A stretch of 64,000 bases of DNA from an uncultured Verrucomicrobiae bacterium (lineage in GTDB: Bacteria; Verrucomicrobiota; Verrucomicrobiia; Chthoniobacterales; Chthoniobacteraceae): assembly GCA_963798345.1 (NCBI GenBank), contig CAWCSW010000020.1, positions 8,855-72,854 on the forward strand. Reading direction: 5' to 3'. A program made the translations under genes and the position numbers. Under the pieces are notes generated by a model that was not told where the DNA came from, did no database searches, and saw nothing but the letters and a program-made list of their open reading frames with translations. Positions 1,464-61,663 of this stretch are shown here, one piece after another; position 1 is the first letter of the stretch; every line of letters starts with the position of its first letter.

Positions 1464-1847
1464 ATGCCTGCCTTCGTCGAGGCAATGAAGGCCAAGCCCG
1501 CGACGGTACTACCGCGGGGTGACGATTGGCTCTATGAATTGAAGTTCGATGGCTACCGTTTCCTCGGCGGAAAAGCCGGCGTGGAGGTTCGCATGTGGTC
1601 GCACTCCGAGAAGGACATCACCTCACGTTTCGCGACGGTCGCCAAGGCCCATTCCGCCTTGGTGGACCGCGAACTCGTCGTCGCTGACGAACTAGGCCGA
1701 CCGTCGTTTAACCCATTCAGCATGCGGACGAGTCCACGGATTACTGCGCGTTCCGCTTCGATCTGCTGGAACTCGATGCATGCGACCTGCGACGCGAACA
1801 GCTGGAGGAACGCCGCGCGATGCCCGGCCGATGGTCGGACACATAAT
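1464..1847 (+). pseudogene. ATP-dependent DNA ligase (LigD-type ligase domain) N-terminal remnant, frameshifted and truncated
   Basis: Ligase motif I KFDGYR (LYELKFDGYRFLGG). The reading frame breaks near 1730. The homologous text FRFDLLELDACDLRREQLEERRAMPG continues in another frame to a stop at 1845-1847. Only about 125 of the roughly 300 aa of the domain are present. Confidence 0.55.
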
Positions 1848-2139: not shown

Positions 2140-3657
2140 ATGACTTCTAATTTAGCAACCGAGGCGCTCGCTCCGAAATGTCTCACCGGTATTGAGGGGC
2201 TCGACCGCGTCCTTCTGGGCGGGCTCCCGCGCAACCGCTTCTATCTCGTGCAGGGCGATCCCGGCGTCGGTAAAACGACTCTCGGGCTACAATTCCTCTT
2301 GGAGGGAGTGAAGTCCGGCGAGAAGGGTCTCTACATTACGCTTTCCGAAACGCGGGAAGAATTGTTGGGAGTCGCGCACTCCCACGACTGGTCACTCGAC
2401 GCCCTGGCCATTTTTGAGTTGTCGGCCATTGAGGAAACGCTGTCCACCGATTCGCAAAACACGCTCTTCCATCCCTCGGAGGTTGAGTTGAATCACATCA
2501 CGAAGATTCTCCGCGATAAGGTAAGCGAAGTGCAGCCGGCGCGCATAGTGTTCGACTCGCTTTCCGAGCTGCGGCTGCTCGCGCAGAATCCATTGCGGTA
2601 TCGACGGCAGTTGCTTTCGCTCAAGCAGTTCTTCGTCGGGCGCAACTGCACGGTCCTGGTCATGGACGACCGGACCAGCGAAGCCTCCGACCGGGAGGTA
2701 CAGAGCATCGCGCATGGGGTTTTGAATCTGGCGCGGATGGCTCCCGAATACGGCGCGGAACGCCGCCGACTTTCGGTGGTCAAAGTGCGCGGCGAGGCAT
2801 TCCGCGGCGGTTTTCACGACTACATTATTACCAAAGGTGGTCTGGTCGTTTTCCCGCGTCTGATCGCCTCCGAGCATCGCCGCACCTTTCCGGCACAAGC
2901 AATCTCCAGTGACATCAAGCAACTGGATGCCCTGCTGCTCGGCGGTTTGGATCGGGGCACCAGTACGCTCTTTTCCGGTCCTCCGGGAACCGGGAAATCG
3001 ACGCTGGGAGCCAAGTTCGCGGCGGCGGCCGCGGGCCGTGGTGAAGCCGTTGCCGCCTATACTTTCGACGAGAAAATCGAGACCTACATCCAGCGTGGGG
3101 ATGCGCTCGGCATGGAGTTGAGCAAGCACATCGCGAGCGGCAAGCTGGAGGCGACGCAAATCAATCCCGCGGAACTCTCGCCAGGCGAATTTGCGCATCG
3201 CATCCGCCGCGCCGTGGAAGACCGGGACGTCCGGTTGGTCGTGATCGACAGCTTGAACGGCTACCTCAATGCGATGCCCGAGGAGCGTTTCCTCACCATC
3301 CAGATGCATGAGTTGCTCAGCTATCTGGCGCAACAGGGCGTCGTGACGATTCTCATTCTCGCGCAGCACGGACTGGTCGGGTCGATGCAGTCGCCCGTCG
3401 ATGTCACCTATCTCGCGGATACCGTGCTGATTCTCCGCTATTTCGAGGTCGAGGGCGCGGTGAAGCAGGCCGTTTCGGTAATCAAGAAGCGCAGCGGCGG
3501 CCACGAGCGAACGATTCGGGAATTCAAGATTCAATCCGACGGCGTCCACGTTGGAGAGCCGCTCCGCGAGTTCCATGGCGTGCTCACGGGAGTGCCGACT
3601 TTTCAAGGATCGGCCGAGGCAATTATGAAAGGAAAAGGTGGCAACGGACATTCGTGA
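2140..3657 (+). CDS. kaiC: KaiC-family circadian-clock-like ATPase (two RecA-like P-loop domains)
   Basis: Domain I GIEGLDRVLLGGLPRNRFYLVQGDPGVGKTTLGLQFL. Domain II ISSDIKQLDALLLGGLDRGTSTLFSGPPGTGKSTLGAKFA. KaiC-like C-terminal stretch DTVLILRYFEVEGAVKQAVSVIKKRSGGHERTIREFKI. The stop overlaps the start of the downstream kinase by 20 nt. Confidence 0.8.
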   Translation: MTSNLATEALAPKCLTGIEGLDRVLLGGLPRNRFYLVQGDPGVGKTTLGLQFLLEGVKSGEKGLYITLSETREELLGVAHSHDWSLDALAIFELSAIEETLSTDSQNTLFHPSEVELNHITKILRDKVSEVQPARIVFDSLSELRLLAQNPLRYRRQLLSLKQFFVGRNCTVLVMDDRTSEASDREVQSIAHGVLNLARMAPEYGAERRRLSVVKVRGEAFRGGFHDYIITKGGLVVFPRLIASEHRRTFPAQAISSDIKQLDALLLGGLDRGTSTLFSGPPGTGKSTLGAKFAAAAAGRGEAVAAYTFDEKIETYIQRGDALGMELSKHIASGKLEATQINPAELSPGEFAHRIRRAVEDRDVRLVVIDSLNGYLNAMPEERFLTIQMHELLSYLAQQGVVTILILAQHGLVGSMQSPVDVTYLADTVLILRYFEVEGAVKQAVSVIKKRSGGHERTIREFKIQSDGVHVGEPLREFHGVLTGVPTFQGSAEAIMKGKGGNGHS

Positions 3658-16998: not shown

Positions 16999-17906
16999 AT
17001 GCTCAACGAACTCTGGTATCGAAATTCCATCATTTACAGCCTTGATGTCGAAACCTTCATGGATGCCAATCACGATGGGATCGGCGACTTCGAAGGCCTG
17101 AGCCTCTCGCCCAGGCTCTCAAGGCAACACGTGAGGTGCCGCCAGGTGCGCAATGGTGCCACTTTCTCCGTAACCACGATGAGCTCGATCTCGGACGTCT
17201 GACCGAGAAACAGCGGGAGAAGGTCTTTGCGCGCTTCGGCCCGGAGAAGGATATGCAGCTTTACGATCGCGGCATTCGCCGCCGCCTCGCACCGATGCTG
17301 GGCAATCGCCCCCAGCTGGAACTCGCGAACAGCCTCGCCCTTTCGCTACCGGGCACGCCGGTGCTGCGCTACGGCGATGAGATTGGCATGGGCGATGATC
17401 TTGACCTCTCGGAGCGCAATTCCGTCCGCACGCCTATGCAGTGGAGCAACGAAATTAACGGCGGTTTTTCCACCGCGAAGAAAACGGTTCGCCCGGTGAT
17501 CGAGAAGGGCAGCTATGGATTTTCACGGGTGAACGTGGAAGCGCAGCGGCGGGAGCCGGATTCGTTCCTGACCTGGACGGCGGCGATGATCCGCCTGCGC
17601 AAGGAATGTCCCGAGATCGGAATGGGCGCCTGGAAAATGGTGGAGACGAAGTCGAAGTCGATCCTCGCTTTGCAATACGAGTGGAGGGGCAGTTCCGTGG
17701 TGATCATGCACAATTTCGCTTCGTCTCCGCAAACGGTCCACATCCGGCCGGAAGGAGGTCGCGAGCACGGCCTCGTGGATCTGATTGAGCGCCAGGAGAG
17801 CGCGGCTGACGGCAGGGGCGAACACGAAGTTGCGCTCGACGCGCCCGGCTACCGCTGGTTCCGCGTCGGGCCGCTAACGCAAAAGCTCGGCCGCAAGCGG
17901 GCGTGA
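16999..17906 (+). pseudogene. treS: Trehalose synthase / GH13 alpha-amylase-family gene remnant with a roughly 300-codon internal deletion
   Basis: N-terminal 35 aa MLNELWYRNSIIYSLDVETFMDANHDGIGDFEGL (GH13/TreS N-terminus) join, in a different frame, to a TreS-like C-terminal half (WCHFLRNHDELDLG...LSLPGTPVLRYGDEIGMGDDLDLSERNSVRTPMQWS...). The catalytic core is missing. The junction lies at a 6-bp inverted repeat at 17100..17118. Confidence 0.65.
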
Positions 17907-29154: not shown

Positions 29155-30045
29155 ATGCCCCGAAAAACGCCCTTGCGCACTGACGTCCATTCGCTCGGTA
29201 GAGCCCGCACGGGCGTCAGCGGTCTCGGCGAAATTACGGGCGGCGGGTTACCAGCTGGCAGGCCCACCCTCGTTTCCGCCCGTGCGGGTACGGGCAAAAG
29301 GACGTTTGTCGTCGAGTTCCTCGATGCGCGGTGCGATGGATTTTGGCGAGCGAGTTGTTATTATAACGTTCGAGGGAAACGCCGAAGAGTTGACGGCCAA
29401 CCTCCGCTCGCTCGGGTTCGATCTCGCCCAGCTCACGGCGCTGAAGAGAATCGTCATAGATTGGGTTCATACCAATAGCAGCGAATTCGAGGAGCCTGGC
29501 GAACTTGATCTGGAAGGGCTCTTCATCCGGCCGGGCAACGTGATTGACTTGATTGGGGCGAAGTGCGTCGTCCTCGATACTGTGGAAGCGCTTTTCGCGG
29601 GGCCGCCCAACGAGAGTGTCCTGCGCGTGGAGTTGCGCCGGCTTTTCCGCTGGTTGAAGGATCGCGGGATTCCCGCGGTGATCACCGGTGAGAAAGGCGA
29701 CGGGACGCTTAGCCGCCATGGACTGGAGGAATATGTAGCCGATTGCTTGATCTCCCTGGACCACCACATGACCGCGCAAATTTCCACGCGCAGACTGCGC
29801 GTCATCAAGTATCTCGATTTCGCCCATGGGACGAACGAATACCCTTTCCTCATCGGATAACGCGGCATCTCGGACCTGCCGATCACCGCATTGCGGCTCG
29901 ACCACACGGCTCCGAGCGAACGCGTGTCCGCGGGCATCGCGGGGCTCGACAAAATGCTCGGCGGGCGCGGTGTTTTCCGCGGCGCGAACGTGCTCGTGTC
30001 GGGATCGCCAGACACAATCGTTCACTTAGTCCAAGCGCCGCCTAT
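29155..30045 (+). pseudogene. Second KaiC-like gene, degraded (two frameshifts, CII P-loop destroyed, 3' truncated)
   Basis: CI Walker A GVSGLGEITGGGLPAGRPTLVSARAGTGKRTFVVEFL (frame 1). CI continues in a second frame (FGERVVIITFEGNAEEL...DRGIPAVITGEKGDG...LRVIKYLDFAHG). The CI-CII linker and CII start lie in a third frame (ISDLPITALRLDHTAPSERVSAGIAGLDKMLGGRGVFRGANVLVSGSPD), where the P-loop GxPGTGKT is lost. No further homology follows. Confidence 0.65.
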
Positions 30046-30218
30046 TACTGACCAACGCGCAGGATTGAATCACCACCCGCTGCGGAGTCACCTACTGCCA
30101 AATACTGCCATTATCCCAGTTTTTGAGCGCTTTTGGGGGTTGAAAACGGACGTCAAAGGCGGTAACTTACCCTGTCGCAATGAAAAACACCCGAGACACC
30201 TCGGGGTTTGTAATCAGC

Positions 30219-30250
30219 AGGTCGTCGGTTCGAATCCGTCTGCCGGCTCC
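30219..30250 (+). other. tRNA 3'-half-like remnant (variable loop, T-arm, acceptor 3' strand), no foldable 5' half
   Basis: AGGTCGTCGGTTCGAATCCGTCTGCCGGCTCC closely parallels the E. coli tRNA-fMet 3' end (AGGTCGTCGGTTCAAATCCGGCCCCCGCA) and has the canonical GGTTCGAATCC T-loop. I could not pair a 5' acceptor strand or an anticodon arm upstream. It lies 175 nt downstream of the KaiC-like pseudogene. Confidence 0.4.
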
Positions 30251-30433
30251 CCCCATATCGAAGGAATTGCGATTCGGAAAGCTTCCGAAACAAACCCGCG
30301 GATAATCTTTGTTCGCCTGTTGCTTGCCACTTCTGCGGCCCGGGAGCCCCAGTCTCCACCGCATGGCCCCGAGTTTAAAACCGCCCCCAAAATCGCCTTG
30401 GACTTGGGGGAGTGGATGGGGTTGTATTCTTCA

Positions 30434-31573
30434 ATGAAAAAACTCTTCCTCCTGGGGGTTGCCGGTCTGCTGGCAGTTTCTGCGCGCGCGGCAAATCTTC
30501 CCGGTGGTACGTTCATGAAGTTTGAGCAGGAGTGCAAGGCGTCCTTCGACGAACCGTGGCGTACGATTCCCTGGAAGATTTCGCTGCTGGAAGCGCAGAA
30601 GGTCGCGGCCCTGGAGAAGAAACCGATTTTCATCTGGGCCATGGATGGCCATCCCCTGGGCTGCACCTGAAACAACGGAGTGCTCGACCGTGCGTCGACC
30701 TTTTCCGATCCGGAGATCATTGCCTCCCTCAAGACCGACTTTATCCCCGTCGCCATAGACCAAGCCTACCAACGGCGGCAAAAAGACGCGGAAGGAGAGT
30801 TTTATCGCAAGATTGCGGGCCAGGGACCGCGCCGTAATTTCGACGACACAACCCAGGGATTGTATGTGGCCGGACCGGACGGCGCCTTGCTCGGGTTCAC
30901 CAACAATCGCGGGTCGGAAAGGGTTATGGAGTTGTTGAAGAAGGGGTTGGAGAAATACCAACCATCGGAGGTGGCTTCCATCAACCCTGGCAAGCTGGAC
31001 GCCCGCTACAACCCTCAACCTCCGGAAGGGGGGCTCGTGATTCGCGTTCAGGCCAAAGTCATGGGGGGTTACAAAAAGGCGGACGACAAATGGGAAGCGA
31101 TCTTTCAGACGTCGGTCTCACGCGACAACCTCTGGATCACCGAAGAAGAACATGAGGCTCTGGTGAAAGGGTCATTTCCCAAGACCCTCCAGGAACGAAT
31201 CGCGCGGTTTCATCTCGTGGACAATACCCGCGGTGAGCCACCGATGTGGAGCCAAGACGAGATCAGCCATCTGAACATCGACGTAAAGAATGGACTCATC
31301 GAAGGGACGGCCGGTCTGCGGACGAAGTCGAATGATCGAGGCTACGATGCGCGCCTGAGAGGGAACATAGACGTGAAGGAGGGTAAGTTGTCGCGGTTCG
31401 AGATGATCTCGGAGGGGGAATTCTGGGGGCACGGCCCGTACACGCAAAACCCGCCATCGGGAAAGTTTCCCCTCGCCATTTCCTTTACCCTGGCGGATGG
31501 GACGGACGTCGCGGACGCCATTCCGCCGCAGGCTTCGAGGGGCTGGGTGCAGGGTTATCTGAAGCCTGATTGA
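30434..31573 (+). CDS. Secreted thioredoxin-fold (Thioredoxin_7/DUF255-like) protein with in-frame TGA at 30668-30670. Candidate selenoprotein; otherwise a nonsense pseudogene
   Basis: Signal peptide MKKLFLLGVAGLLAVSARA. The Trx-fold beta1 KPIFIWAMDGHPLGCT is followed immediately by TGA. The same frame continues NNGVLDRASTFSDPEIIASLKTDFIPVAIDQ...GLYVAGPDGALLGF, which matches the post-CxxC part of DUF255-type domains ([31 protein letters not shown]). The TGA therefore sits at the redox-motif position. An imperfect hairpin begins 9-14 nt downstream (GGAGUGCUCGACCGUGCGUCGACCUUUUCC). Confidence 0.5.
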
Positions 31574-34447: not shown

Positions 34448-37400
34448 TTAGCCATCCATCCACGGCCGGAGCCGGGTCTTGATATCTTCGGTCATGCTAA
34501 TGCGCAGGTGGGCGTCCGGGACAAGACGGAGTTGGGAGCCGTCTTCGCCGCGGAACACGAACTCCACCTGACGATTCCCGGGATTCGTAATCATCGCTTC
34601 GTGGACGACGGCCAAATCGGATTCGGTGGTCTTCTGGCGGTCGAAGTTCAGCACCACCGGCTTTTCCACGACCGGCTTCTTCAGCGGCTTGACTTCGGTG
34701 GCGGCGATGCGCACTCCCTCCCCTCGCAAGTCGAGACGACCGGTCACCGAAACGACGCCTCCCAGAACCAGATGCTGCTGCGCCTTGAGATATGTCTCGC
34801 TCCACACCATGATCTCGAGCTGATCGGTGAGATCCTCGACGACGATGACGGCAAAAGGCTTCGACTCCTTTTTGGTGAATTTCTTGTCGATTTGGATCAG
34901 GGCTCCGGCGATGGAAACCGTGCTCTTATCTTCCTGCTCCGCCAATCGCATAATAGGAATGAACCGATCGCTCTCGAGGGCCGGGCGGTATTCGTCCAAA
35001 GGATGTCCCGTGACATAAAAGCCAAGCAATTCCTTCTCGAAAGCCAGCTTCTCATTCTGCGGCCAGGGCGGGATCGCCGCGGTGCCACGGACAGTTGGTG
35101 CGGCCGCCGTCTCGAAAACATCGAACATCGAAATCTGGCCGGCGGCACGGTCGCGATGTGCGCTCGAGGCGGCGGCGATGGCGCCATCAATGGCAGCGAA
35201 CAATTGCGCGCGTTCGACGCCGGCAAAATCAAAGGCGCCGCATTTCACGAGACATTCGATCGCCTTTTTACTGATCTTCCGCGAATCGACGCGGGAGCAG
35301 AAGTTCTCGAGTGACTCGAACGGCCCATCTTTTGTGCGTTCTTCCAATGCGGCCACCATCGCGGATTCACCGACGTTTTTGATTGCGGCCAGCCCGAAAC
35401 GGATCGCACCCAAACGCGGCTTCTCCGGTGGTGCCTCGGCGCTGCCATTTTCTGGTGTTCGTTTCGCCGTTTTCGCTTTCCGGCGCCCTTTTACTGGTTT
35501 TTCGTCGGACAGCTCCGCGAAGCGAACACCGGCCGGTTCATGGTCGTCAACAGTGGCAATTGGCGATGCGTCCGCCGCTGCGGCGGGATCCACTCGTTTC
35601 CGGGCCACCTTCAACGCCTCGACCCCTTCGTTGTTGATTTCGGCCGGTTCGAACTTCAGACCCGCGAGATTGAGATCCGGCGGGAGAATCCGAATTCCCA
35701 ACCGTTCGCACTCGGCCACAAACACGCTGATTTTGTCCGTGTTCGAGACTTCGTTACTCATGACCGCAGCCATAAACTCGACCGGATAGTTAGCCTTGAG
35801 ATATGCCGTTTGATAACTAATCCAGGCGTAGGCGGCGGAGTGTGAACGGTTAAAACCATAGCCGGCAAATTTCTCGAGAGTGTCGAATACCTGATCGGCG
35901 GTTTCCGCCTTGATCCCGTGCAATTTCGCGCACCCTTCCCGAAATTTTACGCGCTCCTTGGCCATCTTTTCCTTGTCCTTCTTGCCCATCGCGCGGCGAA
36001 GCAAATCAGCGCCACCGAGCGTGTAGCCGGCCATCACCTGCGCGGCCTGCATCACCTGTTCCTGATAGATGAGCACGCCGTAAGTTTCCCTGGTCACGCC
36101 ATCGAGCAACTTGTGCGGGGCCTTGACCTTGGCCAGACCCTTCTTCCGCTTCACATAATCAGGGATGAGATCCATGGGGCCCGGACGATAGAGCGCGAGG
36201 ATGCGCGTTGATGTCCTCGATGTCGCTGACATCGAATTGCCGGCACACATTCACCATCCCACCGGATTCGACCTGGAAAACCGCAATGGTTTCACCCCGA
36301 TTATAGATGTCGAAGGTCGGCTGGTCATCAAGCGGGATCCGATCGATATCAAAGTCCGGCGTGTGTTTATGAATGAGCGCCACGGCATCGGTGATGACCG
36401 TGAGTGTCTTGAGCCCGAGAAAATCGCACTTCAACATACCCACTTCGGTCAGCGGACCCATGGCGTATTGGCTGACGATCGAGCCGTCATTGGCGCGGGT
36501 CAGTGGAATGTAATCCGACAGGTCGCGGTCGCCGATGACCACGCCGGCCGCATGCACGCCGACGCCGCGTGTCAACCCTTCGAGCTTGGACGCGGTTTCC
36601 CAAAGCTGAGCCGTGGCCGGTTCGTTCTCGACGGCTTGCTTCAACTCCGGGTTCTTGTCGATGGCTCCGGGGATATGCTCGATGGTGCCGGTTTCCTTGT
36701 TGGTTTTGTCCAGGCCGGTGAGCGTAATACCCAGCTCGTTCGGGATCATTTTCGCCACCCGATCCGCATCTCCATAACTCCACCCCATCACGCGCGCGAC
36801 ATCACGGATAACGGATTTCGCGCCGAGCGTGCCAAACGTGATGATCTGCGACACCGCGCGCTCGCCGTATTTTTGCCGCACGTAATCGATGACTTCGCCA
36901 CGGCGATTGACGCAAAAATCAACATCGATATCCGGCGGTGAGACGCGCTCGGGATTGAGGAAGCGTTCGAACAGAAGCTTGAACTTTAACGGATCGATAT
37001 CAGTGATCCCCATGGCATAGGCGACCATCGATCCGGCGGCCGAACCGCGCCCGGGACCAACTGGAATACCCTGCCTTCGCGCCCAATCTATGAAGTCCCA
37101 GACGATGAGAAAGTAATTCGTAAATCCCTGCTTCTCGAGCACGCCGATCTCGAATTCGAATCGCTTTTGCACGTCCTCCGAATCCGCCGCGGCGCCATAC
37201 CGTTTGTGCAGCCCCTCGGCAACAATCTCGCGCAAATACTGATTCTGGGTCTTTCCCTTGGGCGGCGTGTAAAGCGGATACTTGGGGGTGGTATCGAGTT
37301 GGAATCCGCAGCGCTCGGCGATGGTCAGCGTGTTATCACAGGCCTCGGGGAATTCACGGAACAACTCGCGCATTTCCGCCGGTGATTTGAAATAGACTTC

Positions 37401-38132
37401 CGGCACATAATGCAGCCGGCGCTCGTCGGTGACATTTGCGCCCGTCCCGATACAAATCATCGCGTCGTGCGCGCCGTGATCTTCACGATTGAGGAAATGG
37501 ACATCGTTGGCCGCGACCAGCTCGAGACCGAGATCCCGGGCCAGGCGCGGCAACACGGCATTGGTTTTCCGCTGCTGTTCGAGGCCGTGATCGTGCATCT
37601 CGAGAAAGAAATTCTCCGGCCCGAGCATATCCCGATACATGGCCGCGATGCCGCGCGCTTTGGCATAATCATCGTCCTGATGCAGGGCCATGGCGACCTC
37701 ACCCTTGAGACACCCGCTGAGGGCGATCAAACCTTTCGCATACTTCGCGAGATGCTCATGATCAATGCGCGGCTTGTAATACATGCCATCGAGCTGGCCG
37801 ATGGAAACCAGCTTCACGAGGTTTCGATAGCCTTCCGCATTTTCGGCCAGCAGCGTGAAGTGAAACGACGCGTCGCGCTGACTGAGCCCTTTCTTTTCAT
37901 GGAGCGAGCCTGGCGCCATATACACCTCGCAACCAATGATCGGTTTGATGCCGGCTTTCTCACCTTCCTGATAGAACTGGATCGCGCCGAACATGTTGCC
38001 GTGATCCGTGATGGCGACCGCCGGCATTCCGTAGTCCCCTGCTTTCTTCATGAGCGCCGGAATCCGCACCGCACCGTCGAGGGTGCTGTATTCGGTATGC
38101 AAATGGAGGTGAACGAACGAGTCGGCGGACAT
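34448..38132 (-). CDS. dnaE: DNA polymerase III alpha subunit (DnaE), split into two ORFs by an apparent 1-nt insertion near 36204
   Basis: N-terminal ORF 36159..38132: PHP domain MSADSFVHLHLHTEYSTLDGA..., ...GLKTLTVI..., ending IEDINAHPRALSS. C-terminal ORF 34448..36250 resumes ...RILALYRPGPMDLIPDY... Removing one C from gcgCatcctc restores IEDINAILALYRPGPM, which parallels E. coli EDMIALVALFRPGP. Confidence 0.85.
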
Positions 38133-47054: not shown

Positions 47055-47370
47055 AGAATCTTCGGAGCTGCTGCCAGCATCCTGATCCTCGGGGCTGACC
47101 ATCGATGGAGCGCCGCTCGGAGATGCCCCTGCTTGAGCGTTGAACGTTGGACGTTCTCACTGACCCGAACAACGTGGGGATGCGTACGGAAAATCAAGCG
47201 CCTCGAACATTTGCCCAAAGATTTCCTTTGCAAAGTCAATCGAGTGGTGTCTCGTCCCCGCCCCGCGCAAGCAAATCCATAATCGTCCCCGTTGGTCCTC
47301 GGGCGGTCTTCAACTGAAGATTCGCCGATTGCGCCGAGGGAAACCCGGGCGACTCAAACACCCAATACCT

Positions 47371-48399
47371 ATGCCTGTTCGCCTCGGCCGTTTTGAAATG
47401 CCGAAAGGTCTCGCCAAAGATGAGACCTCCCGCACCGACACCTACGCCAAGTTCATCGCTGAGCCCTTTGATGCCGGCTACGGCCACACCGTCGGAAATT
47501 CCCTCCGCCGCGTGCTCCTCAGCTCGATCGAGGGTGCCGCCATCACCACCGTCCGCATCGAGGGTGCCCATCACGAATTCCAAACCCTTCCCCATGTGGT
47601 CGAGGACGTGACCGACATCATTCTGAACCTGAAGAAGGTGAAGTTTACCGCCGTCGATCACGAGCAGCGCGCACCCTGACGCATCAGCGTCAACAAGGAA
47701 GGCGACGTGACCGCCGCCGACATCGAAGAGCAGCAGGGCATCGAAGTCGTCAACAAGAAGCAGCACATCTGCACGCTCGACAAGAAGACCAAATTTGAAG
47801 CCGAGCTCGACCGTGCGGCTCGGTCGCGGATTCGCCACCGGCGACGAAAACAAATTTGCGGACATGCCGATCGGCGTGATTCCGATCGACTCGATCTTCT
47901 CGCCCGTTACCCGCGTCAAATATGACGTCGGCAATACCCGCGTCGGCCAGCGGACCGACTACGACAAGCTGGAACTCGAAGTCTGGACCGATGGCCGCAT
48001 CACGCCCGGAGGACGCCGCTGGTGCAGGCCTCGTCGATTTTGAAGAAGCACTTCGAGCCGTTCTATGCACTACGACGAGAATGCGGTGCAGTTCGACGAG
48101 ACGCCGCAGGCGCAGAACCAGGAAAATCAGAAGCTCAAGAAGCTGCTCAACATGAGCGTCAACGAGATCGAGCTTTCCGTGCGCGCGGCCAACTGCCTCA
48201 ACAACGCGAACATCACGACCGTGGGCCAGCTGGCGCATGAAGATCGGAAGCCGAGATGCTCAAGTATCGCAACTTCGGCAAGAAATCGCTCAACGAAATC
48301 AAAGACAAACTGCAACAGCTCGGCCTGGGTCTGGGAGCGAAGTTCGAGGCCGGCCTGGTGGAACCCAATCTGACCGAGACCAGCCTGACGGGTGTCTAA
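47371..48399 (+). pseudogene. rpoA: DNA-directed RNA polymerase alpha subunit (rpoA) reading through at least 5 frame changes
   Basis: rpoA-homologous segments lie in successive frames: 47371-47679 ([33 protein letters not shown]), about 47680-47820 ([35 protein letters not shown]), 47820-48010 ([12 protein letters not shown]...[17 protein letters not shown]...[20 protein letters not shown]), about 48010-48060 ([12 protein letters not shown]), 48065-48245 (alpha-[31 protein letters not shown]), and 48241-48399 ([20 protein letters not shown]). Confidence 0.7.
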
Positions 48400-48435
48400 A
48401 CCCCGAGCTTTCGGCTAAATAAAGATTCACGACCT

Positions 48436-48999
48436 ATGCGTCATAGACGACACAATATTAAACTCGGCCGCAGTCAGGCTCATCGCAACGCCCTGCTGTC
48501 GAATCTCGCCGTCAGTTTGATCTGGCACGATCGCATCAAAACCACGGTGGCCAAGGCCAAGGCCGTTCGCCCCTACGTCGAGAAACTGGTGACCAAAGCC
48601 AAGAAAGACACGCTCCATGCGCGCCGCCTGGTGCTGGCGGAACTGCGCCACAATGTGCGCGCCATGAAGCTGCTTTTCAGCAAAGTCGCTCCGCGTTGCG
48701 CCAATCGGCAGGGAGGCTACACCCGTATTCTCAAGCTCGGACCGCGTCCTGGTGATGCCGCACCGATGGCCTTACTGGAATGGGTCGATTTCGCCCCTGA
48801 GGAAGTAACCGCGACTCCGGAAAAATCTGCGGCGGGCAAGAAACCAGCGGTGAAGAAAACGGCCTCGAAGAAGACGACGGCAAAAGCTTCCTCCGAAGAA
48901 GCCAGCGAAGCTGAATCCGAGCCAGCAAAAAAGAAGGCGGCTCCCAAAAAGCCAAAGGCGAAAAAAGCTGCGGCGTCCGAAGAGGGCGAAGAGAAGTAG
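48436..48999 (+). CDS. rplQ: 50S ribosomal protein L17 with Lys/Ala-rich C-terminal extension
   Basis: MRHRRHNIKLGRSQAHRNALLSNLAVSLIWHDRIKTTVAKAKAVRPYVEKLVTKAK...GGYTRILKLGPRPGD. Intact. Standard rpoA-rplQ order. Confidence 0.9.
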   Translation: MRHRRHNIKLGRSQAHRNALLSNLAVSLIWHDRIKTTVAKAKAVRPYVEKLVTKAKKDTLHARRLVLAELRHNVRAMKLLFSKVAPRCANRQGGYTRILKLGPRPGDAAPMALLEWVDFAPEEVTATPEKSAAGKKPAVKKTASKKTTAKASSEEASEAESEPAKKKAAPKKPKAKKAAASEEGEEK

Positions 49000-49041
49000 C
49001 AGCGACACCTGCCTCAGGCGGAATCAGGAAATTAATGCAGG

Positions 49042-49063
49042 GGCGAATCGGCAACGGTTCGCC
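49042..49063 (+). terminator. Candidate stem-loop terminator after rplQ
   Basis: GGCGAA-tcggcaacgg-TTCGCC 6-bp stem, followed by ucucgcauuu. Confidence 0.35.
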
Positions 49064-49197
49064 TCTCGCATTTACGGACAGAACGTTGTTTCGGGAAGAA
49101 ACGGGCTGGGGACGAAACCAGACGAAGGCGGTGACTTTGCGCTTTGGAGCGAAAGGTCCAGCGCCTACAAAGAGGAGTTGAGCCCTTAAGTTGCCTC

Positions 49198-50223
49198 ATG
49201 AAAAATGTCACCCCTCCGCAGATCGATCTCTCAAAATTCAATCCCCGTTGGGTCATCCGTGGTGCGATCGTGATCCTCGTTTTGTGGGCGTTGATCTCGT
49301 GCTACTCGACGGTCCCCGCGGATTCACAGGGAGTGCTGGTGCGCCTGGGCCAATATCACGACACCGTGAAATCAGGCCTCTGCTTCAAGCTCCCGTTGGG
49401 AATCGATCAACTTATCCTCGTGGCAGTCGAGCGTCAGCAGAAGCTCGAGTTTGGCTTTGGCACGCGCGGCGCGACAAATGAGTCTCAATACAATTCCAGC
49501 CCCGACGAACAGGAGGCCGAACAAAGCATGGTTACGGGGGACCTGAACATGGCGAACGTCGAATGGGTGGTGCAGTATCGCATTGAGGACGCCAGGGCCT
49601 GGCTTTTCCACGTCGAGAATCCCGGAGACACTCTACGCGCCGCCACGGAGTCCGCCATGCGAGAGGTAATTGGCGATCGCACCGTGGATGAAGTGCTGAC
49701 CATTGGCCGCCAGGACATCGAGAACCAGTGCCTGCTGCGTTTGAAAGAACTGGCCGAACTCTACGGCCTTGGCGTCCGGATCATGCAGGTGCAGTTGAAA
49801 AACGTGCATCCCCCAGCGCCGGTGCAGGCTTCCTTCAACGAGGTGAACCAGGCGCAGCAGGAAAAGGAACAGCAGATCAACCTGGCCAATGGTGAATACA
49901 ACAAGGCTGTGCCGAAAGCGCGTGGCGAGGCGGAACAAAGACTGAGCGAGGCGGAGGGCTACGCCCTCAAACGCGTGAACGAAGCAGAGGGCGACGCCGG
50001 GCGCTTCAAGGCACTGCTGACCGAGTATCTCAAAGCTCGGGAAGTTACCCGCCAGCGGCTCTATTTCGAAACGATGAAAGATGTGCTCCCGGCGATGGGT
50101 CGGAAAATTATCATCGATGACCAGGGAAGTTCCGTGCTCCCCTTGCTAAACCTCGATCGCGCGGGCGCTGAGGTGAGTCCGCCCGGAGGAACCAGTTTTC
50201 CGCCGACGCGGAGGGCCGAGTGA
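49198..50223 (+). CDS. SPFH/band-7 family protein, HflK-like
   Basis: N-terminal TM (WVIRGAIVILVLWALISCY). FKLPLGIDQLILVAVERQQKLEF... and coiled-coil C-terminal typical of HflK/HflC. ATG at 49198. No hflC partner follows. Confidence 0.7.
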   Translation: MKNVTPPQIDLSKFNPRWVIRGAIVILVLWALISCYSTVPADSQGVLVRLGQYHDTVKSGLCFKLPLGIDQLILVAVERQQKLEFGFGTRGATNESQYNSSPDEQEAEQSMVTGDLNMANVEWVVQYRIEDARAWLFHVENPGDTLRAATESAMREVIGDRTVDEVLTIGRQDIENQCLLRLKELAELYGLGVRIMQVQLKNVHPPAPVQASFNEVNQAQQEKEQQINLANGEYNKAVPKARGEAEQRLSEAEGYALKRVNEAEGDAGRFKALLTEYLKAREVTRQRLYFETMKDVLPAMGRKIIIDDQGSSVLPLLNLDRAGAEVSPPGGTSFPPTRRAE

Positions 50224-50422: not shown

Positions 50423-50998
50423 CTACGAAATCTCGCGCGAACGCGGTTCGCGGTCTTTCGTTGTGGCGGTGGATGGCGTCGTCACGAACGGACCGCCAGC
50501 CAGCGGCGCCACTCCGGTGAAAGCGACGTCGGGCATGTCGCTGGAGCGACCACCGAGAGGAAAGTCCTTTCGCAACGGAAAGAATGGGTAGCCGTCCCAC
50601 ATCAGGATCCGCCGCAGATCCGGGTGGCCGGAAAACTTGATCCCAAACATGTCGTACGCCTCGCGCTCGTGCCAGTCTGCCGTCGGCCAAATGTCACTGA
50701 CGCTGGGAACCTCGAGGTGATCCTCACTCACCAGCACCTTCAGTCGCAGATGGTCGCCCCGCTCGAGCTGGTAGAGTTCATACACGACTTCAAAGCGCGG
50801 TTCCTCGCCGAAGTTATCGACGCCACTGAGATCAAGCAGGTAGCTGTAGCCGAGCTCGTTTTTGCAAAGGGCAGCGACTTCGTGGATCGCCTCCGGGGAC
50901 ACGACCAAAGTCGTCTCGCCCCGAAACTCATATTTTTTCTGCACCTCGAAGCGGGATGCAATGCTGGCCAGGTCGGCGGAGTATTTTGGCAAAGCCAT
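50423..50998 (-). CDS. nuoC: NADH-quinone oxidoreductase subunit C (30-kDa subunit)
   Basis: MALPKYSADL...GETTLVVSPEAIHEVAALCKNELGYSYLLDLSGVDN...ADWHEREAYDMFGIKFSGHPDLRRIL. Start taken at the internal ATG at 50998. Confidence 0.85.
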   Translation of the reverse strand: MALPKYSADLASIASRFEVQKKYEFRGETTLVVSPEAIHEVAALCKNELGYSYLLDLSGVDNFGEEPRFEVVYELYQLERGDHLRLKVLVSEDHLEVPSVSDIWPTADWHEREAYDMFGIKFSGHPDLRRILMWDGYPFFPLRKDFPLGGRSSDMPDVAFTGVAPLAGGPFVTTPSTATTKDREPRSREIS

Positions 50999-51021
50999 GT
51001 CGAAGAGAGGCGATTGAAAAA

Positions 51022-51546
51022 TCAGGCTTCGAGGGCGGTGAGGCTCTTTTTCTGCGCGCTCAACGGCTTCTCGGTATCGATCTTGGCCTGCAAACGGAGA
51101 AGGCCTTCGATCAATGCTTCCGGGCGCGGCGGACAACCACTGATATAAACGTCCACGGGCAACAGTTGATCGATGCCCTGAAGCACGGCGTAGCTGCGGT
51201 ACATGCCACCGCTCGAGGCGCAGGCACCCATGGCAATGACCCATTTGGGCTCGGGCATCTGGTCGTAGATACGCTTCACGGCGAGCGCCATCTTGTAGGT
51301 CACCGTGCCAGCCACGATCATGACGTCACTTTGGCGCGGGGAAAACCGCATCACTTCAGCTCCGAAGCGCGCAATATCGAAGCGGGATGCTCCCGTGGCC
51401 ATGAGCTCAATCGCGCAGCAGGCGAGTCCCATCGGCATTGGCCAAAGCGAGTTTTTCCGCATCCAATTCATGGCGGCATCGACGCGGGTAAAAATGACGT
51501 TTCCCTCGACCTTGGAGTCGTAGGCGACCGGAGTGGCAGTGGTCAT
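51022..51546 (-). CDS. nuoB: NADH-quinone oxidoreductase subunit B (20-kDa, [4Fe-4S] N2)
   Basis: [15 protein letters not shown]...[12 protein letters not shown]...[12 protein letters not shown]...[10 protein letters not shown]. Confidence 0.9.
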
Positions 51547-56326: not shown

Positions 56327-57223
56327 ATGCTCAGACCCCGAAAGAAATACACCGTCCATGATTTGCGGCAGCTCAAGGGCAAGCGGTGCCTCACCCACAT
56401 CCACGTAAAATCTCCAGAGGAAGCAGCCGCCGCGGAGGCTGCGGGCGTGGATTTAATGAGCTGCAGTTTCGATTCTCCGGAAGCACAGGCGCGTCTGCCG
56501 AGGCTCGTCGCAGCGGCACCGGAGAGCTTCATCTCCGCAGCCACTCCGCACGGTCTCGCTTCGCGCGAAGAAGCGATTCGCGTCTCGTTTCGCGCCCTCG
56601 AGATCGGTGCCAGTTCCGTCTACTGCTCCGCCAGTCCGTTCATCATCGAGGCAATGGCTCGCGAGGGTATTCCGGTCGTTGGACATCTCGGCATGGTGCC
56701 CCGTCACGTTATCTGGACTGGGTATCGAGCGATCGGTAAAACGCTCGTTGAAGCGAAACGGCTCCATGAGGACATGCAGCGCCTTGAAAACGCGGGCGCC
56801 TATGCGGCCGAGCTCGAGGTCGTCCCCCATCGCCTGGCGCGCTGGTTGTGCACGCAAACTTCGATGCTCCTCATGTCGCTCGGTTCCGGCGACGGCTGCG
56901 ATACACAGTTCCTCTTTTCCGACGACATCCTCGGCGACTACGATGAACGCCCGCCGCGCCACGCCAAAGCGTATCGCAATTTCTCCGCTGAATACTGCCG
57001 CTTGCAAAACGAGCGCATCGCCGCCTTCACCGAATACATCACCGACGTCCATGCCGGGCGCTTCCCCGAACAGCTCCAATCTGGTGGAAATGCCGGACGA
57101 GGTATTCCAGGCGTTTGTCGAATCCATCGAAGTGTAACCGCGCCAACGTGGCTGACGGCGAATGCCCTGGTTATTCCGATTGATCGGTGGAGAGTTTTTC
57201 GGTTTGCGCGAAGTGCTCGCTGA
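56327..57223 (+). CDS. 3-methyl-2-oxobutanoate hydroxymethyltransferase (PanB)-family protein, divergent
   Basis: TVHDLRQLKGKR...IPVVGHLGMVPRHV...AGAYAAELEVVP...SLGSGDGCDTQFLFSDDILG parallels the PanB motifs (TVHDL, CGHLGLTPQ, GAQLLVLECVP, GIGAG...DGQ). Confidence 0.6.
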   Translation: MLRPRKKYTVHDLRQLKGKRCLTHIHVKSPEEAAAAEAAGVDLMSCSFDSPEAQARLPRLVAAAPESFISAATPHGLASREEAIRVSFRALEIGASSVYCSASPFIIEAMAREGIPVVGHLGMVPRHVIWTGYRAIGKTLVEAKRLHEDMQRLENAGAYAAELEVVPHRLARWLCTQTSMLLMSLGSGDGCDTQFLFSDDILGDYDERPPRHAKAYRNFSAEYCRLQNERIAAFTEYITDVHAGRFPEQLQSGGNAGRGIPGVCRIHRSVTAPTWLTANALVIPIDRWRVFRFARSAR

Positions 57224-58107: not shown

Positions 58108-59877
58108 ATGAGCGTTGCCATTGCCAGCGTGCACGGTATTCCATCGCCGCCGATGTCCGTTTATCGACGAGCGCTGGCCTACTATCGACCCTATCTGGGG
58201 CGCACCGTCGCCGCCGGCGGGCTGACCTTGCTCGCAACCGGGTTCAATCTCCTGCGCCCGTGGCCGATGGCCTTCATCGTTGATCGCGTTTTACCAGCCG
58301 TGGACAGCGGCGCGCATGGATTTCGATGGGCCACAATTTTTTCCGCAAATCCCAATGGCGCCAGCGATGGTGGGATGTTGATTCCATGGACCGCGATCCT
58401 GCTCATGGCCTGCGGAGCGATGGTGATCTTTCACCTCCTCGCCAGCGGGCTCGGATACGTGATCAATCTGCTGACGATTCGCGCGAGTTTGATGTCGCTG
58501 ATGACCCTCCGCACGGAAATCTACGCGTGGTTGCACGCGTTGCCGCTGAAGTTTCACGATCAACGCCGCAGCGCGGACTCGAGCTTTCGCGTGGCGTACG
58601 ATTCGCAGGCGATCCAGGCCATTTACAGCAAGGTCTTCTTCATTTTTCAAAGCAGCATCGCGCTGGTCAGCACCTTCGCCACCATGTGGTATTTCGACTG
58701 GCAAATTGCCGTCCTTTCCCTCGCGGTGATCCCCTTTCTGATGCTCACCATTCGCCTGTATGCGGTGCGGATCCGTGATGAATCAACGGTGATTGCCGAG
58801 ACGGAAAGTGCAGTACTGACGACGGCCCAGGAAGGAATCAGCTCGGTCAAGATGGTGCAGGCGTTCGGGCGCGAGGAGCATGAATTGGCGCAATTCAAAA
58901 CCAGCGCGCACGCCAGTCTGGAAGCCAATCTGCGGTTCAATTCCCTCTCCATGCGCAGCAGCGTAATCGTCGGCACGCTCATCGCCCTGAGTACCGCGGC
59001 GATGATTTTTGTCGGCGCGCGCCATGTGCTCGATGGCACCCTCAAAGTCGGCCAACTGTGGTATCTCTCGACGTTGCTCCTGATGCTCTATCAACCGCTC
59101 GAAGCATTGACGCATGTGGCCTGGGCCTTGGAAAGCGCGGCCGCCGGTGCGCAACGTTGCTTCGAGGTCCTGGATCGCCGCGACGACGTGCCGGATCGAG
59201 CCGATGCCGTCGTCCTCGAGCAAGTAAAAGGCGCGGTCGGTTTTGACCAGGTCAGCTTCGGCTACGATCCGGAACGTCCCATCTTGCGCGACATCGATCT
59301 CATGCTCGATCCGGGACAGACGGTTGCCTTTGTCGGCGGAACGGGCGCGGGAAAATCGACTCTCCTTTCGCTGGTCCCGCGCTTTTACGATCCCCTCTCC
59401 GGGCGTGTTTTGATTGACGGGCAGGACGTGCGCAACGTGACCAAAAAATCGCTCCGGCGCCACATCAGTATCGTCCTGCAGGACACCTTGCTCTTTTCCA
59501 CGACTGTCCGGGAAAACATCGCCTACGGTCGGCCCGGTGCCTCGGAAGCGGAAATCATCGAAGCCGCGCAGCGGGCGCAGGCCCATGAATTCATCATGGA
59601 AATGCCCGACGGTTATCGCTCGCAGGTCGGCGAACGCGGAGGACACTTGAGCGTCGGCCAGCGGCAGCGCAGGAATTTATCGTTAGTCGAACCCATCCGC
59701 GAAAATCAGGTCGCTAGCCGATTCGAATGCGCCGATGTCGTATCAGGCCGTCCACGGGTCGTCGCGATCCGAGCCGACCGCGACCAGTTGCCGGCGCGGT
59801 TGATAGGCCGGCAGGAAAGCGGCGATGGAAACGGGAACGATACATTCGTCGCGGGCGCAACGTTCCCGGTGTTGTAG
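58108..59877 (+). CDS. ABC exporter (MsbA-like fused TMD-NBD), homology ends right after the signature motif. Probably 3'-truncated
   Basis: Six-TM domain. Walker A GGTGAGKSTLLSL. Q-loop and signature LSVGQRQR at about 59650-59668. No Walker B, D-loop or H-loop in any frame afterwards. The remaining ORF text is low-complexity. Confidence 0.7.
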   Translation: MSVAIASVHGIPSPPMSVYRRALAYYRPYLGRTVAAGGLTLLATGFNLLRPWPMAFIVDRVLPAVDSGAHGFRWATIFSANPNGASDGGMLIPWTAILLMACGAMVIFHLLASGLGYVINLLTIRASLMSLMTLRTEIYAWLHALPLKFHDQRRSADSSFRVAYDSQAIQAIYSKVFFIFQSSIALVSTFATMWYFDWQIAVLSLAVIPFLMLTIRLYAVRIRDESTVIAETESAVLTTAQEGISSVKMVQAFGREEHELAQFKTSAHASLEANLRFNSLSMRSSVIVGTLIALSTAAMIFVGARHVLDGTLKVGQLWYLSTLLLMLYQPLEALTHVAWALESAAAGAQRCFEVLDRRDDVPDRADAVVLEQVKGAVGFDQVSFGYDPERPILRDIDLMLDPGQTVAFVGGTGAGKSTLLSLVPRFYDPLSGRVLIDGQDVRNVTKKSLRRHISIVLQDTLLFSTTVRENIAYGRPGASEAEIIEAAQRAQAHEFIMEMPDGYRSQVGERGGHLSVGQRQRRNLSLVEPIRENQVASRFECADVVSGRPRVVAIRADRDQLPARLIGRQESGDGNGNDTFVAGATFPVL

Positions 59878-61014
59878 AGCGCACTGGCCGTGGTCGGCAT
59901 GAAATCGAACGCACCGGCATTCGCGAATCCCGGTTTCGTGCCGTTCAGCGTGCCGGTCCACTCGCCCGCGCCTGGCACATAGGTCGAGCCTGATTCGATC
60001 CAGTTGTTGCTGCCACGGATCTGGCGGCCATTCGCCCAGACGGCCTCGACGGTGCGTTCGATGCGCGCGGTTCCGCCAGCCGTGACATCGATGACGTTGT
60101 TGTGCATCTCCACCGACTGGATGCCATCGAAGATCCGGAACACGGTCGAATCGGTTCCCGAGGCAGGATGAAGGTGTTGTTGACGAAACGTGTGCGACCT
60201 TTGCTCTGACCGGTGCCGTCGCCACCGACGCGAATCACCGAGCCGAATGCGGAGTTGGTATGCACGATGACATTGCCGACCACATCGGCATCCTCGCGAA
60301 TCAGGTCGCGCGTCCAGCCCGGTTGTTGCGTGTTCTCGTCCGGTCCGATCAGTTCAAGCTCGTGATAGACCGCGCCTTCAAACCAGTTGTAGGTGATCTC
60401 GCTGCGCTCGTGGCGGCTCTTGAGCAGATTGCCGCCATTGCCATTGTGGATGTAGCAGTAACGGATGCGCAGCACCGACCCGGGATGCGCGATCTCGTCG
60501 CTCTGCATGTAGAGCGGGTGCTGGTTGGTGCCGTTGCCGGCGTTGTAGACCTCGGAATACTCGAGCGTGAACGAACCCGAGAGTGGTCGGTCCCGAGAAT
60601 ACCGTGCCCCGGACAGTCGTGGATGACGCTGTTGCGCACGGTCACATCGTGCGCGCCCTGGAGGATGCAGCGCGAGGAACCGCCGCTGATGTCGAAGCCC
60701 TCGAATACGAGATGATCGGACTGGCGGAATTCGACGGTGTTGCCGGCACCGACGATGGCGGGCCGTTGCCCAGCGACCGCAATGCCGCGGATCACGACCG
60801 GATCGCCGGCGACGCCACCATCGGCCTGCGGCACCACGACTCCGCCGGCGTAGACGACACCGCCATCGACCTCGACGATATCGCCGCCACCGAGATCGAC
60901 CGCGGCGAACAATGCATTGAGTCCGGTATAGGTACGTGTCGGTCCGACCTGATAGGTCGCCGCCAGCAGTGGCGAAGAGAAAACCAGCAGGAACAACGCT
61001 GCCTTGCGCATCAT
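59706..61014 (-). pseudogene. Secreted right-handed parallel beta-helix (pectate-lyase-fold) protein with two frameshifts
   Basis: Signal peptide MMRKAALFLLVFSSPLLAATYQV. Beta-helix-like segments lie in three frames: ...VRNSVIHDCPGHGILG; TLEYSEVYNAGNGT...IRYCYIHNGNGGNLL...VVGNVIVH...RFVNNTF; VEMHNNVIDVTAGG...NWIESGSTYVPG. It converges on the truncated ABC gene at about 59700. Confidence 0.5.
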
Positions 61015-61074
61015 GCAGACTCCGGCCCTTGTCGAAGAGTCCAGTATCGCTGCCGACGTCGCGGTCGATTTGTG

Positions 61075-61663
61075 ACCCGCGTCGATAGCCGAACGGATAG
61101 ACGCCGATCCAGCGCGCATGCGCCCAGAACGCAAATGCGGCCCACGCGCCGACGCCGATGGCGACAGTCAACGCGTCGCCGCTCAGGGTGCCGCGCGCGT
61201 AGCTCACGCCGTTGCGCCGGTCACGGCGACGCGAAACGATGAACAGTACGATCGCCCAGATCAGGAAGGCGCCGAAGAGGACGACGTCATGCAGGAAGCC
61301 GGTGGCCAGCAGGTGGCCGAAGGCCCAGACCTTGGTTCCGGCCAGCATCGGATGGCCAATCCTGTGCTTGATGTGGTTGCGCGGCACATAGGCAGCAGTG
61401 ACGAGGACGAAGGCGATCAAGGTGAACAGGGCGTTGGCGTGCTTCAATGCGACGGGCGGCACGTAGAGCAACACCGGCTGCTGCCGGGCCAGACGGAAGC
61501 CCCAGACGATCAACACGAAGCCGACAAGCGACACTACCGAGTAGATCCCCTTCCAGCCGCCTTCGCCGAGCTTCGCGATCATGCGCTGACGAAATCCGTC
61601 GGCAAATATGCGCGTTGAATGAAGGCCGAGAAAAACCAGCAGGCCAAGCAGGAGGATCGTCAT
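61075..61663 (-). CDS. NnrU-family membrane protein (stop codon not found; the ORF runs on out of homology)
   Basis: IKHRIGHPMLAGTKVWAFGHLLATGFLHDVVLFGAFLIWAIVLFIVSRRRDRRNG... is the NnrU-family pattern. After about 195 aa the frame continues as Arg-rich nonsense into the next gene. Confidence 0.55.

Follow-up and report, generated by a model that had tools for sequence, protein, structure and literature searches.

Frame disruptions within recognizable genes have been described from several sources. In Trypanosoma brucei Lister 427, according to the available excerpts of the published account (PMC8445201), nearby allelic variants in a collapsed long-read assembly caused wrong read alignments, INDEL errors, and truncated ORFs; the frameshifts fell in well-conserved genes, arose from variants collapsed in the consensus, and disappeared on haplotype separation, which restored the genes. 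Homopolymer errors of Nanopore and PacBio sequencing, which fall within base runs and comprise both insertions and deletions, likewise produce spurious gene-splitting frameshifts in long-read MAGs (10.1101/2021.08.23.457338; Sereika et al. 2022, PMC9262707). Genuine pseudogenes also contain multiple frame disruptions in a recognizable gene, and their decay is accompanied by relaxed constraint, mixed lesions that include deletions, and loss of motifs. Programmed +1 frameshifting of the prfB type makes a +1 shift necessary to read through a gene, and it operates at a single, conserved site whose sequence is defined and prone to shifting.

Two essential genes, rpoA and dnaE, appear broken in the window (by which we mean the whole 64-kb stretch of DNA analyzed here), and their lesions can be compared with each of these systems. 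They share with Lister 427 the presence of frameshifts in well-conserved genes; however, Lister 427 is a diploid eukaryote with read-level proof, whereas a mixed bacterial population is inferred for the window, and the signature found here (synonymous alleles in tandem, insertions only, mostly C/G) is not described in those excerpts of PMC8445201. In contrast to homopolymer errors, the lesions of rpoA and dnaE are exclusively +1 insertions (ten of ten), without a single deletion, and at least nine of them have neighboring bases that differ from the inserted one and thus extend no base run; homopolymer indel error was rejected as a cause on these grounds. None of the marks of genuine decay is present in rpoA or dnaE, and the ten sites, unlike the single site of prfB, are unconserved and have no shift-prone sequence. 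We propose that the frameshifts are an artifact of consensus building rather than biology, that both genes are intact and functional in the organism, and that the consensus stage is where all ten extra bases were written in. On the basis of sequence comparison, we give this reading a probability of about 0.87. As biology the outcome would be ordinary, two essential genes that are intact and merely broken in appearance.

All parts of RpoA are present at 47329-48420 but are scattered across three frames, as seen in a three-frame translation and in the ORF list. The stitched translation matches thousands of homologs, the best of which is P0001, a 339-aa protein from the Chthoniobacteraceae MAG GCA_039932675.1. 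The contig that carries P0001 (L001) aligns with the window over 47216-50151 at 87.5% nucleotide identity; the order rpoA, rplQ, Band-7 gene is common to both, and the upstream flank is 94% identical. Given this shared gene order and these flanks, the window rpoA is the orthologous copy, and its nucleotide identity to the L001 ortholog, the closest relative, is 92%. A codon-aware nucleotide alignment of the two genes places nine 1-nt insertions and no deletions in the window sequence (table 1). These are visible as six frame changes plus one local scramble (47670-47679), and they sum to +9 nt, so that the final 156 nt are again in the frame of the ATG. Within the scramble, L001 reads CAG CGG ACC CTG CGC and the window reads CAGCG[C]G[C]ACCCTG[A]CGC; the two inserted C residues may be a single GC dinucleotide, and the in-frame TGA found there, the only stop in rpoA, is made by the inserted bases themselves. 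Deletion of the nine bases yields a 339-aa protein with five to six differences from P0001, and the repaired gene compared with this relative has a dS of 0.35, a dN of 0.009, and a dN/dS of 0.026. The first 299 nt of rpoA are free of insertions and are as conserved as the affected stretch. Downstream, rplQ differs from its L001 counterpart by only one in-frame 3-nt change, located in a low-complexity tail.

The dnaE gene is broken into ORFs of 657 and 600 aa, the break falling in the finger domain at profile position 69 of 166. Its single extra base is lacking in three relatives (contigs L084, L085, and L086), which read ATCAACGCG-ATCCT where the window reads ATCAACGCG[C]ATCCT, and deletion of this base gives a 1227-aa DnaE without an internal stop. 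A 102-aa piece of RpoA and the 657-aa piece of DnaE both have exact protein matches on one NCBI/ENA contig of 72,854 bp; since these fragments are deposited, the frameshift lesions are part of the public record. The first-pass annotation, made from the letters alone, is borne out in its description of the locus. It had reported a recognizable rpoA with at least five frame changes, and the alignment to L001 finds the six and the scramble; it had called rplQ intact, and the gene has a full-length L17 domain; it had described the long neighboring ORFs of 862, 1845, and 731 aa as uninterrupted, and their domain content is normal; and the single 1-nt dnaE insertion that it had placed near 36204 is the base at 36203.

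Table 1. Positions of rpoA, dnaE, their putatively inserted bases, and other intact or interrupted genes in the window (inserted bases in square brackets)
Feature	Position	Strand	Basis or detail
rpoA, orthologous copy with nine putatively spurious 1-nt insertions	47371..48399	+	Alignment to L001; flanks
Inserted C, C, A; net +3, makes TGA 47677-47679	47670, 47672, 47679	+	L001 alignment
Inserted C, GAG CT[C]G ACC or GAG[C]TCG; frame 1 to 2	47806..47808	+	L001 alignment
Inserted G or C, AC[G]C CCG; frame 2 to 0	48004..48005	+	L001 alignment
Inserted G or C, GCC[G]CTG or GCCG[C]TG; frame 0 to 1	48018..48019	+	L001 alignment
Inserted A or C, GC[A]C TAC; frame 1 to 2	48069..48070	+	L001 alignment
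Inserted G or C, GC[G]C ATG; frame 2 to 0	48235..48236	+	L001 alignment
Inserted A, AAG[A]TCG; frame 0 to 1, the ATG frame	48243	+	L001 alignment
rplQ, intact, full-length L17 domain	48436..48999	+	ORF list, domain search
dnaE with one putatively spurious base	34448..38132	-	Single-base deletion restores ORF
Inserted base, G on + strand, C on sense strand; AAC GCG[C]ATC CTC	36203	-	Relatives L084, L085, L086
KaiC-like paralog	29155-about 29990	+	+1 shift CTC[G]ATG at 29323 or GCG[C]GGT at 29329
Ligase-like remnant	1485-1822		At most 56% identity to any homolog, about two thirds of gene gone
ABC exporter cut at breakpoint	58108-59877		520/521 identical to P0132, unrelated after residue 521
Alpha-amylase fragment	17136-17906		C-terminal part of gene only

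The ten insertions follow the codon phase of the genes that they interrupt. Each adjoins the third position of a codon, at which the added base, if substituted, gives a synonymous codon; the synonymous doublets are CG[C]G, CTG[A], CT[C]G, AC[G]C, GCC[G], GC[A]C, GC[G]C, and AAG[A] in rpoA and GCG[C] in dnaE. A random insertion in rpoA has a probability of 0.23 of falling outside a run and being synonymous beside a third position; for an insertion already outside a run the probability of a synonymous third position is 0.44 (0.36-0.49 if only G/C contexts are considered). That nine to ten of nine to ten events are codon-phased has a p of approximately 1e-3 to 1e-6, depending on the null. Codon phase is invisible to sequencing chemistry, yet it is followed by natural polymorphism. 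The site at 48004/48005 is the only one that can also be read as the extension of a run, from CC to CCC. Inspection of the ten contexts revealed no motif common to them and no site at which re-pairing is possible. A palindrome or methylation motif at the insertion sites was considered and set aside as post hoc, with no motif common to all sites.

At most sites the two bases of the doublet are also those that distinguish the synonymous codons most common in 83 relatives (CGC/CGG, CTC/CTG, ACG/ACC, GCC/GCG, and AAG/AAA); a scan of genome contigs gave 80 full-length rpoA relatives, and the allele counts were taken over 83. The Leu codon at 47806/47808 is CTC in 29 relatives and CTG in 5, and most of the 83 encode Leu at codon 215 (48018/48019), by CTC or CTG. 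The codon at 48004/48005 is ACG in 26, ACT in 12, and ACC in 11; that at 48235/48236 is GCC in 41 and GCG in 33, the same two bases as the window doublet; that at 48243 is AAG in 69 and AAA in 14; and the affected Arg codon is CGC in 57 versus CGG in 4. The base pairs of the doublets (C/G seven, A/G two, A/C one, C/T none) differ from the spectrum of natural differences between the window and L001 (n = 72), of which 33 (46%) are C/T and 15 (21%) are C/G, and the insertion sites are therefore not a random draw of SNP types.

The best-supported mechanism for the proposed artifact, to which we assign somewhat better than even odds, is the retention in tandem of two variants at polymorphic synonymous sites. 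We infer that the reads were drawn from a population with two variants at synonymous third codon positions and that a consensus or polishing step may have kept both alleles in tandem instead of choosing between them, such that GCG and GCC would be written as GCGC. Each stacked pair of alleles would add one base and thereby shift the frame by +1. The placement of nine of the ten insertions within 574 nt of the 64-kb window rules out chance placement as an explanation, and conservation alone does not explain the rpoA cluster, as the clean first 299 nt are equally conserved. The simplest assumption is a locally mixed tract: the nine events would mark a short segment in which two haplotypes were mixed at comparable depth, either a recombined tract or one to which reads had been cross-recruited from a close relative, and dnaE would contain only one such stacked site. 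A species like that of L001 was rejected as the source of the second haplotype by cross-recruitment, given that plain C/G mismatches to L001 persist inside the affected stretch. Tandem retention of this kind needs one extra assumption, namely that the consensus model would rate a disagreement between G and C as costlier than two deletions and settle C/T and A/G disagreements, which are common confusions, as substitutions. By simple likelihood reasoning, writing both bases at the price of one deletion per read would then outscore writing a single base that mismatches half of the reads.

Comparable lesions are found in other public assemblies. The search with dnaE returned many DnaE fragments of 300-600 aa on contigs of hundreds of kilobases. 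On two of the ENA long contigs named 'contig_N' (L087, ERZ25039470, and L088, ERZ25039605), dnaE and prs are broken by nine shifts, of which eight are +1 and assignable to codon boundaries, with protein-level collinearity as the sole guide to placement, and one is a homopolymer deletion. Examples of the former are GCG[C]AAC, AAG[A]GGC, and ACC[G]AGC. Owing to the way in which they were placed, these junctions were used for consistency and not for statistics. This recurrence, judged from the deposited sequences, shows that the +1 pattern belongs to a class of public assemblies rather than to a single organism. By contrast, the dnaE of L084, a JGI contig of a relative, is split by homopolymer indels of both signs, which is the classic pattern. 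One long-read MAG project on soil, with high microdiversity, used Flye and one round of Medaka (PMC12313526).

The alternative that survives best retains an artifact but dispenses with polymorphism: a frame-blind, context-specific basecaller or polisher error would insert C, G (or A), turning GCG-A into GCGCA, for example, perhaps at modified bases, and the rpoA cluster would come from a locally poor stretch with low coverage or few reads. A GCGC-like context is indeed present at 47670-72, 48235, the dnaE base 36203, the KaiC-like site at 29329, and the GCG[C]AAC site of L087; the insertion repeats the base lying two positions upstream in approximately 9 of 11 events, against an expected fraction of approximately 0.44; and such an error accounts for the predominance of C/G pairs, unlike the natural SNP spectrum. 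Nevertheless, even in these contexts a frame-blind process would be compatible with the third codon position in only about 36-49% of cases, as opposed to all 9-10 events, and the doublet bases coincide with common alleles of the relatives. No one motif covers all the sites either, as CTG[A]CGC, AAG[A]TCG, and GC[A]CTAC differ from the GCGC-like contexts. We consider this alternative rather improbable, although it deserves to be taken seriously.

A second alternative is that rpoA and dnaE are true pseudogenes whose function is supplied by intact paralogs elsewhere in the genome. The lesions do stand in the deposited record, and real gene remnants (the ligase-like fragment and the truncated KaiC paralog) are found on the same contig. 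However, with five to six of 339 residues changed at a dS of 0.35, the dN/dS of rpoA gives no sign of relaxed selection, and nine indels without many accompanying amino-acid changes indicate that the gene has not long been free of selection. Gene decay in bacteria is biased towards deletions, and in place of a mixed lesion spectrum all ten lesions here are +1, at sites that follow the codon phase. The affected gene occupies the orthologous rpoA-rplQ locus, the flanks of which are conserved in L001, and an intact RpoA closer than P0001 was not found among 5.8 billion proteins; DnaE, moreover, is wholly restored by the removal of one base. Together these observations make true pseudogenes very unlikely.

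The weakest alternative, which we regard as barely conceivable, accepts the extra bases as real both here and in the other soil Verrucomicrobiota that show this pattern and has the essential genes read by base skipping after codons at unconserved sites, through +1 ribosomal frameshifting, four-base decoding, or removal of bases from the mRNA: every event is +1 and placeable directly after a complete sense codon, and similar events occur in other contigs, but none of the insertions is shared by a relative, slippery or re-pairing codons are lacking (a GCG-decoding tRNA, for example, is unable to re-pair on CGC), the first cluster requires a +2 hop and crosses a TGA, and the genes are intact in short-read assemblies of relatives. 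We know of no many-site base-skipping system of such a kind in bacteria; if true, it would mean that free-living bacteria make widespread use of +1 recoding or four-base decoding.

The first-pass annotation had left the choice between true pseudogenes with second copies and assembly indels. Of these, the indels are favored by the codon-phased +1 insertions and the restored genes, and the pseudogenes are disfavored by the dN/dS. The comparison of the locus with related assemblies that it proposed was informative, given that rpoA is uninterrupted in all 83 relatives examined and that the window insertions occur in none of them. Homopolymer context, its other suggestion, would mislead as a check, with at least nine of the ten insertions outside runs, and a check confined to homopolymers would pass errors of this type as real. 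The same population was not found among JGI metagenome contigs with a pattern that matched whether or not two of the insertions were there. Synteny with the 83 related loci was not kept outside rpoA-rplQ-Band7 when their ORFs were compared with the window by tblastn, the output of which was swamped by antisense ORFs. If the lesions are a consensus artifact, as we propose, their signature is easily recognizable and unlike the homopolymer errors for which most tools are built: +1 insertions outside runs that leave the two common alleles next to each other at third positions where they are synonymous. Annotation pipelines would split rpoA and dnaE or label them as pseudogenes, marker-gene sets would lose them or take fragments, and pseudogene counts or inferences of genome decay drawn from this contig would be wrong.

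The same annotation was right to warn that these indels bear on every pseudogene call in the window, with the KaiC-like shift, the ligase-like remnant, the ABC exporter breakpoint, and a conserved TGA differing in cause. Apparent gene breaks on this one contig would have four causes (consensus artifact, true decay, structural breakpoint, and a conserved recoded UGA); pseudogene calls on it are unreliable without reads, and each requires its own check. Most genes are whole in Pfam scans of approximately 70 window ORFs. A home-made codon-usage frame classifier was too noisy to detect shifts at 60% GC, and a GC3 filter was uninformative. The ligase-like remnant contains a 6-residue deletion, a change of the catalytic DGE to DRE, and a -1 shift, and on these features it is interpreted as true decay, unlike rpoA and dnaE. 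The KaiC-like gene has, in addition to its +1 shift, an in-frame TAA at 29858-29860, and its match to KaiC ends at profile position 282 of 515; because an intact KaiC is encoded at 2140-3657, this gene is probably a truncated paralog. Its +1 shift resembles the rpoA insertions, yet we are cautious in assigning a cause given the other defects of the gene.

The interrupted ABC exporter is of a different kind. Its counterpart P0132 is a 619-aa protein from another NCBI/ENA contig (124,799 bp). A frameshift was ruled out in this gene, as the absent C-terminus is found in no frame of the window, and the break at 59670/59671 is a breakpoint, either structural or chimeric. A shift at 56327 in a panB-like gene, suspected from a partial Pfam match, was also dismissed, since the N-terminus is in frame. 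Pfam searches of the ORFs at approximately 59.7-62.5 kb, directed at a 380-aa extension of the NnrU ORF, gave no matches, nor did Rfam and tRNA scans of the window.

The ORFs at 29891..30670 and 30680..31573 share one frame and are split by a TGA at 30668-30670. The gene proper extends over 30434..31573, starting at 30434 with a signal peptide, and it is read across the TGA as KKPIFIWAMDGHPLGCT-TGA-NNGVLDRASTF. In a comparison that included the closest relative and 31 metagenome loci, the TGA is conserved in 33 of 33 sequences examined, within the motif MDGHPLGC[TGV]-TGA-NNGV and with coding conservation on either side. Hundreds of homologs in Verrucomicrobiota and Planctomycetota have all been called as proteins of approximately 296 aa that start just past the TGA; one 406-aa call has W at the TGA position and is probably a gene call in which TGA was read as Trp. 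Pfam and NCBIfam models for the family gave no match, and a weak DUF255/thioredoxin-like similarity (E = 0.18) is the only hint of its fold. No sel genes (selA, selB, selC, or selD) are encoded within the window. Based on the conserved TGA and its coding context, 30434..31573 probably encodes an unannotated selenoprotein, and the family looks like one of secreted thioredoxin-fold selenoproteins that have been truncated by gene callers. A SECIS-like hairpin at 30684-30698, 14 nt 3' of the UGA, is short, has a 5-bp stem, and lies in coding sequence; compensatory changes are seen in three of its five base pairs, and no pair is disrupted.

Breaks in dnaE of the kind seen in the window are also present in other public contigs. 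In two long ENA contigs, L087 (ERZ25039470 contig_31653) and L088 (ERZ25039605 contig_73506), both dnaE and prs are split by lesions of the same kind as those of the window, namely eight +1 insertions that can be placed at codon boundaries, in addition to one homopolymer deletion. By contrast, dnaE in L084, a 58.7-kb JGI contig of a relative (3300044699), is in four pieces separated by homopolymer indels of both signs, a pattern that is classic for long-read errors and unlike the lesions of the window. All matches in our DnaE search are at most 600 aa in length, and many are fragments from contigs 0.1-6 Mb in length, suggesting that dnaE is often split in public long-read assemblies. That no full-length DnaE is among the matches may also reflect how the search tool works.

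rpoA contrasts usefully with the remnant of an ATP-dependent, LigD-like DNA ligase, which is a genuinely decayed gene. Within the part that is left, the DGE motif has become DRE and six residues have been deleted; a -1 shift follows, after which the remainder of the gene is absent. The KaiC-like paralogue is likely a truncated pseudogene, because its match to the KaiC profile ends at position 282 of 515; its frame is shifted by +1 at 29323 or 29329 and is interrupted by an in-frame TAA at 29858-29860. A second, intact KaiC is encoded elsewhere in the window. Directly 3' of the truncated paralogue is a tRNA-like 3' fragment, at which neither ARAGORN nor Rfam makes a call and which may be the remnant of an integration site.

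Features with broken, incomplete or unusual reading frames, and associated loci
Feature	Sequence	Coordinates	Strand	Remarks
LigD-like DNA ligase remnant	window	1485..1822	+	N-terminal ~95 residues
KaiC, intact	window	2140..3657
Alpha-amylase fragment	window	17136..17906	+	C-terminal part only
KaiC-like paralogue	window	29155..~29990	+	+1 shift, in-frame TAA, partial KaiC profile match
tRNA-like 3' fragment	window	~30170..30260	+	GGTTCGAATCC at 30227
Candidate selenoprotein gene	window	30434..31573	+	TGA 30668-30670, hairpin 30684-30698
nuoB-like and nuoC-like genes	window	50423..51546	-	isolated pair
ABC exporter	window	58108..59877	+	breakpoint 59670/59671
ORF with NnrU domain	window	59945..61663	-	572 aa; NnrU in first 190 residues only
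dnaE/prs breaks	L087	3046-6200 and 6630-7500
dnaE/prs breaks	L088	3134-5820
dnaE in four pieces	L084	2900-6560

The ABC exporter is identical to a 619-aa exporter encoded on a different NCBI/ENA contig (P0132) at 520 of 521 positions through the LSVGQRQR signature and is unrelated to it beyond, and the missing C-terminus is absent from every frame of the window. The break stems either from a structural difference or from a chimeric join, and the match shows that another assembly contains a near-identical genome.

The alpha-amylase fragment consists solely of the C-terminal quarter of the catalytic domain and the C-terminal domain; the remainder cannot fit upstream because the neighboring gene on the opposite strand ends at 16688. 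The nuoB-like and nuoC-like genes are not accompanied by nuoA, nuoD, or other genes of the complex I operon. The 380-aa extension of the NnrU ORF has no match and its codon usage is ambiguous; it may be artefactual or run antisense to a different gene.

One gene that ORF finders cut into two is probably a selenoprotein gene; its product has a signal peptide and contains the motif MDGHPLGCT-TGA-NNGVLDR. The in-frame TGA is kept in all 33 of the sequences examined and is followed by a 5-bp hairpin with compensatory changes in its stem. No Pfam or NCBIfam model matches the product, and in Verrucomicrobiota and Planctomycetota every homologue is called as a protein of ~296 aa that starts directly 3' of the TGA.
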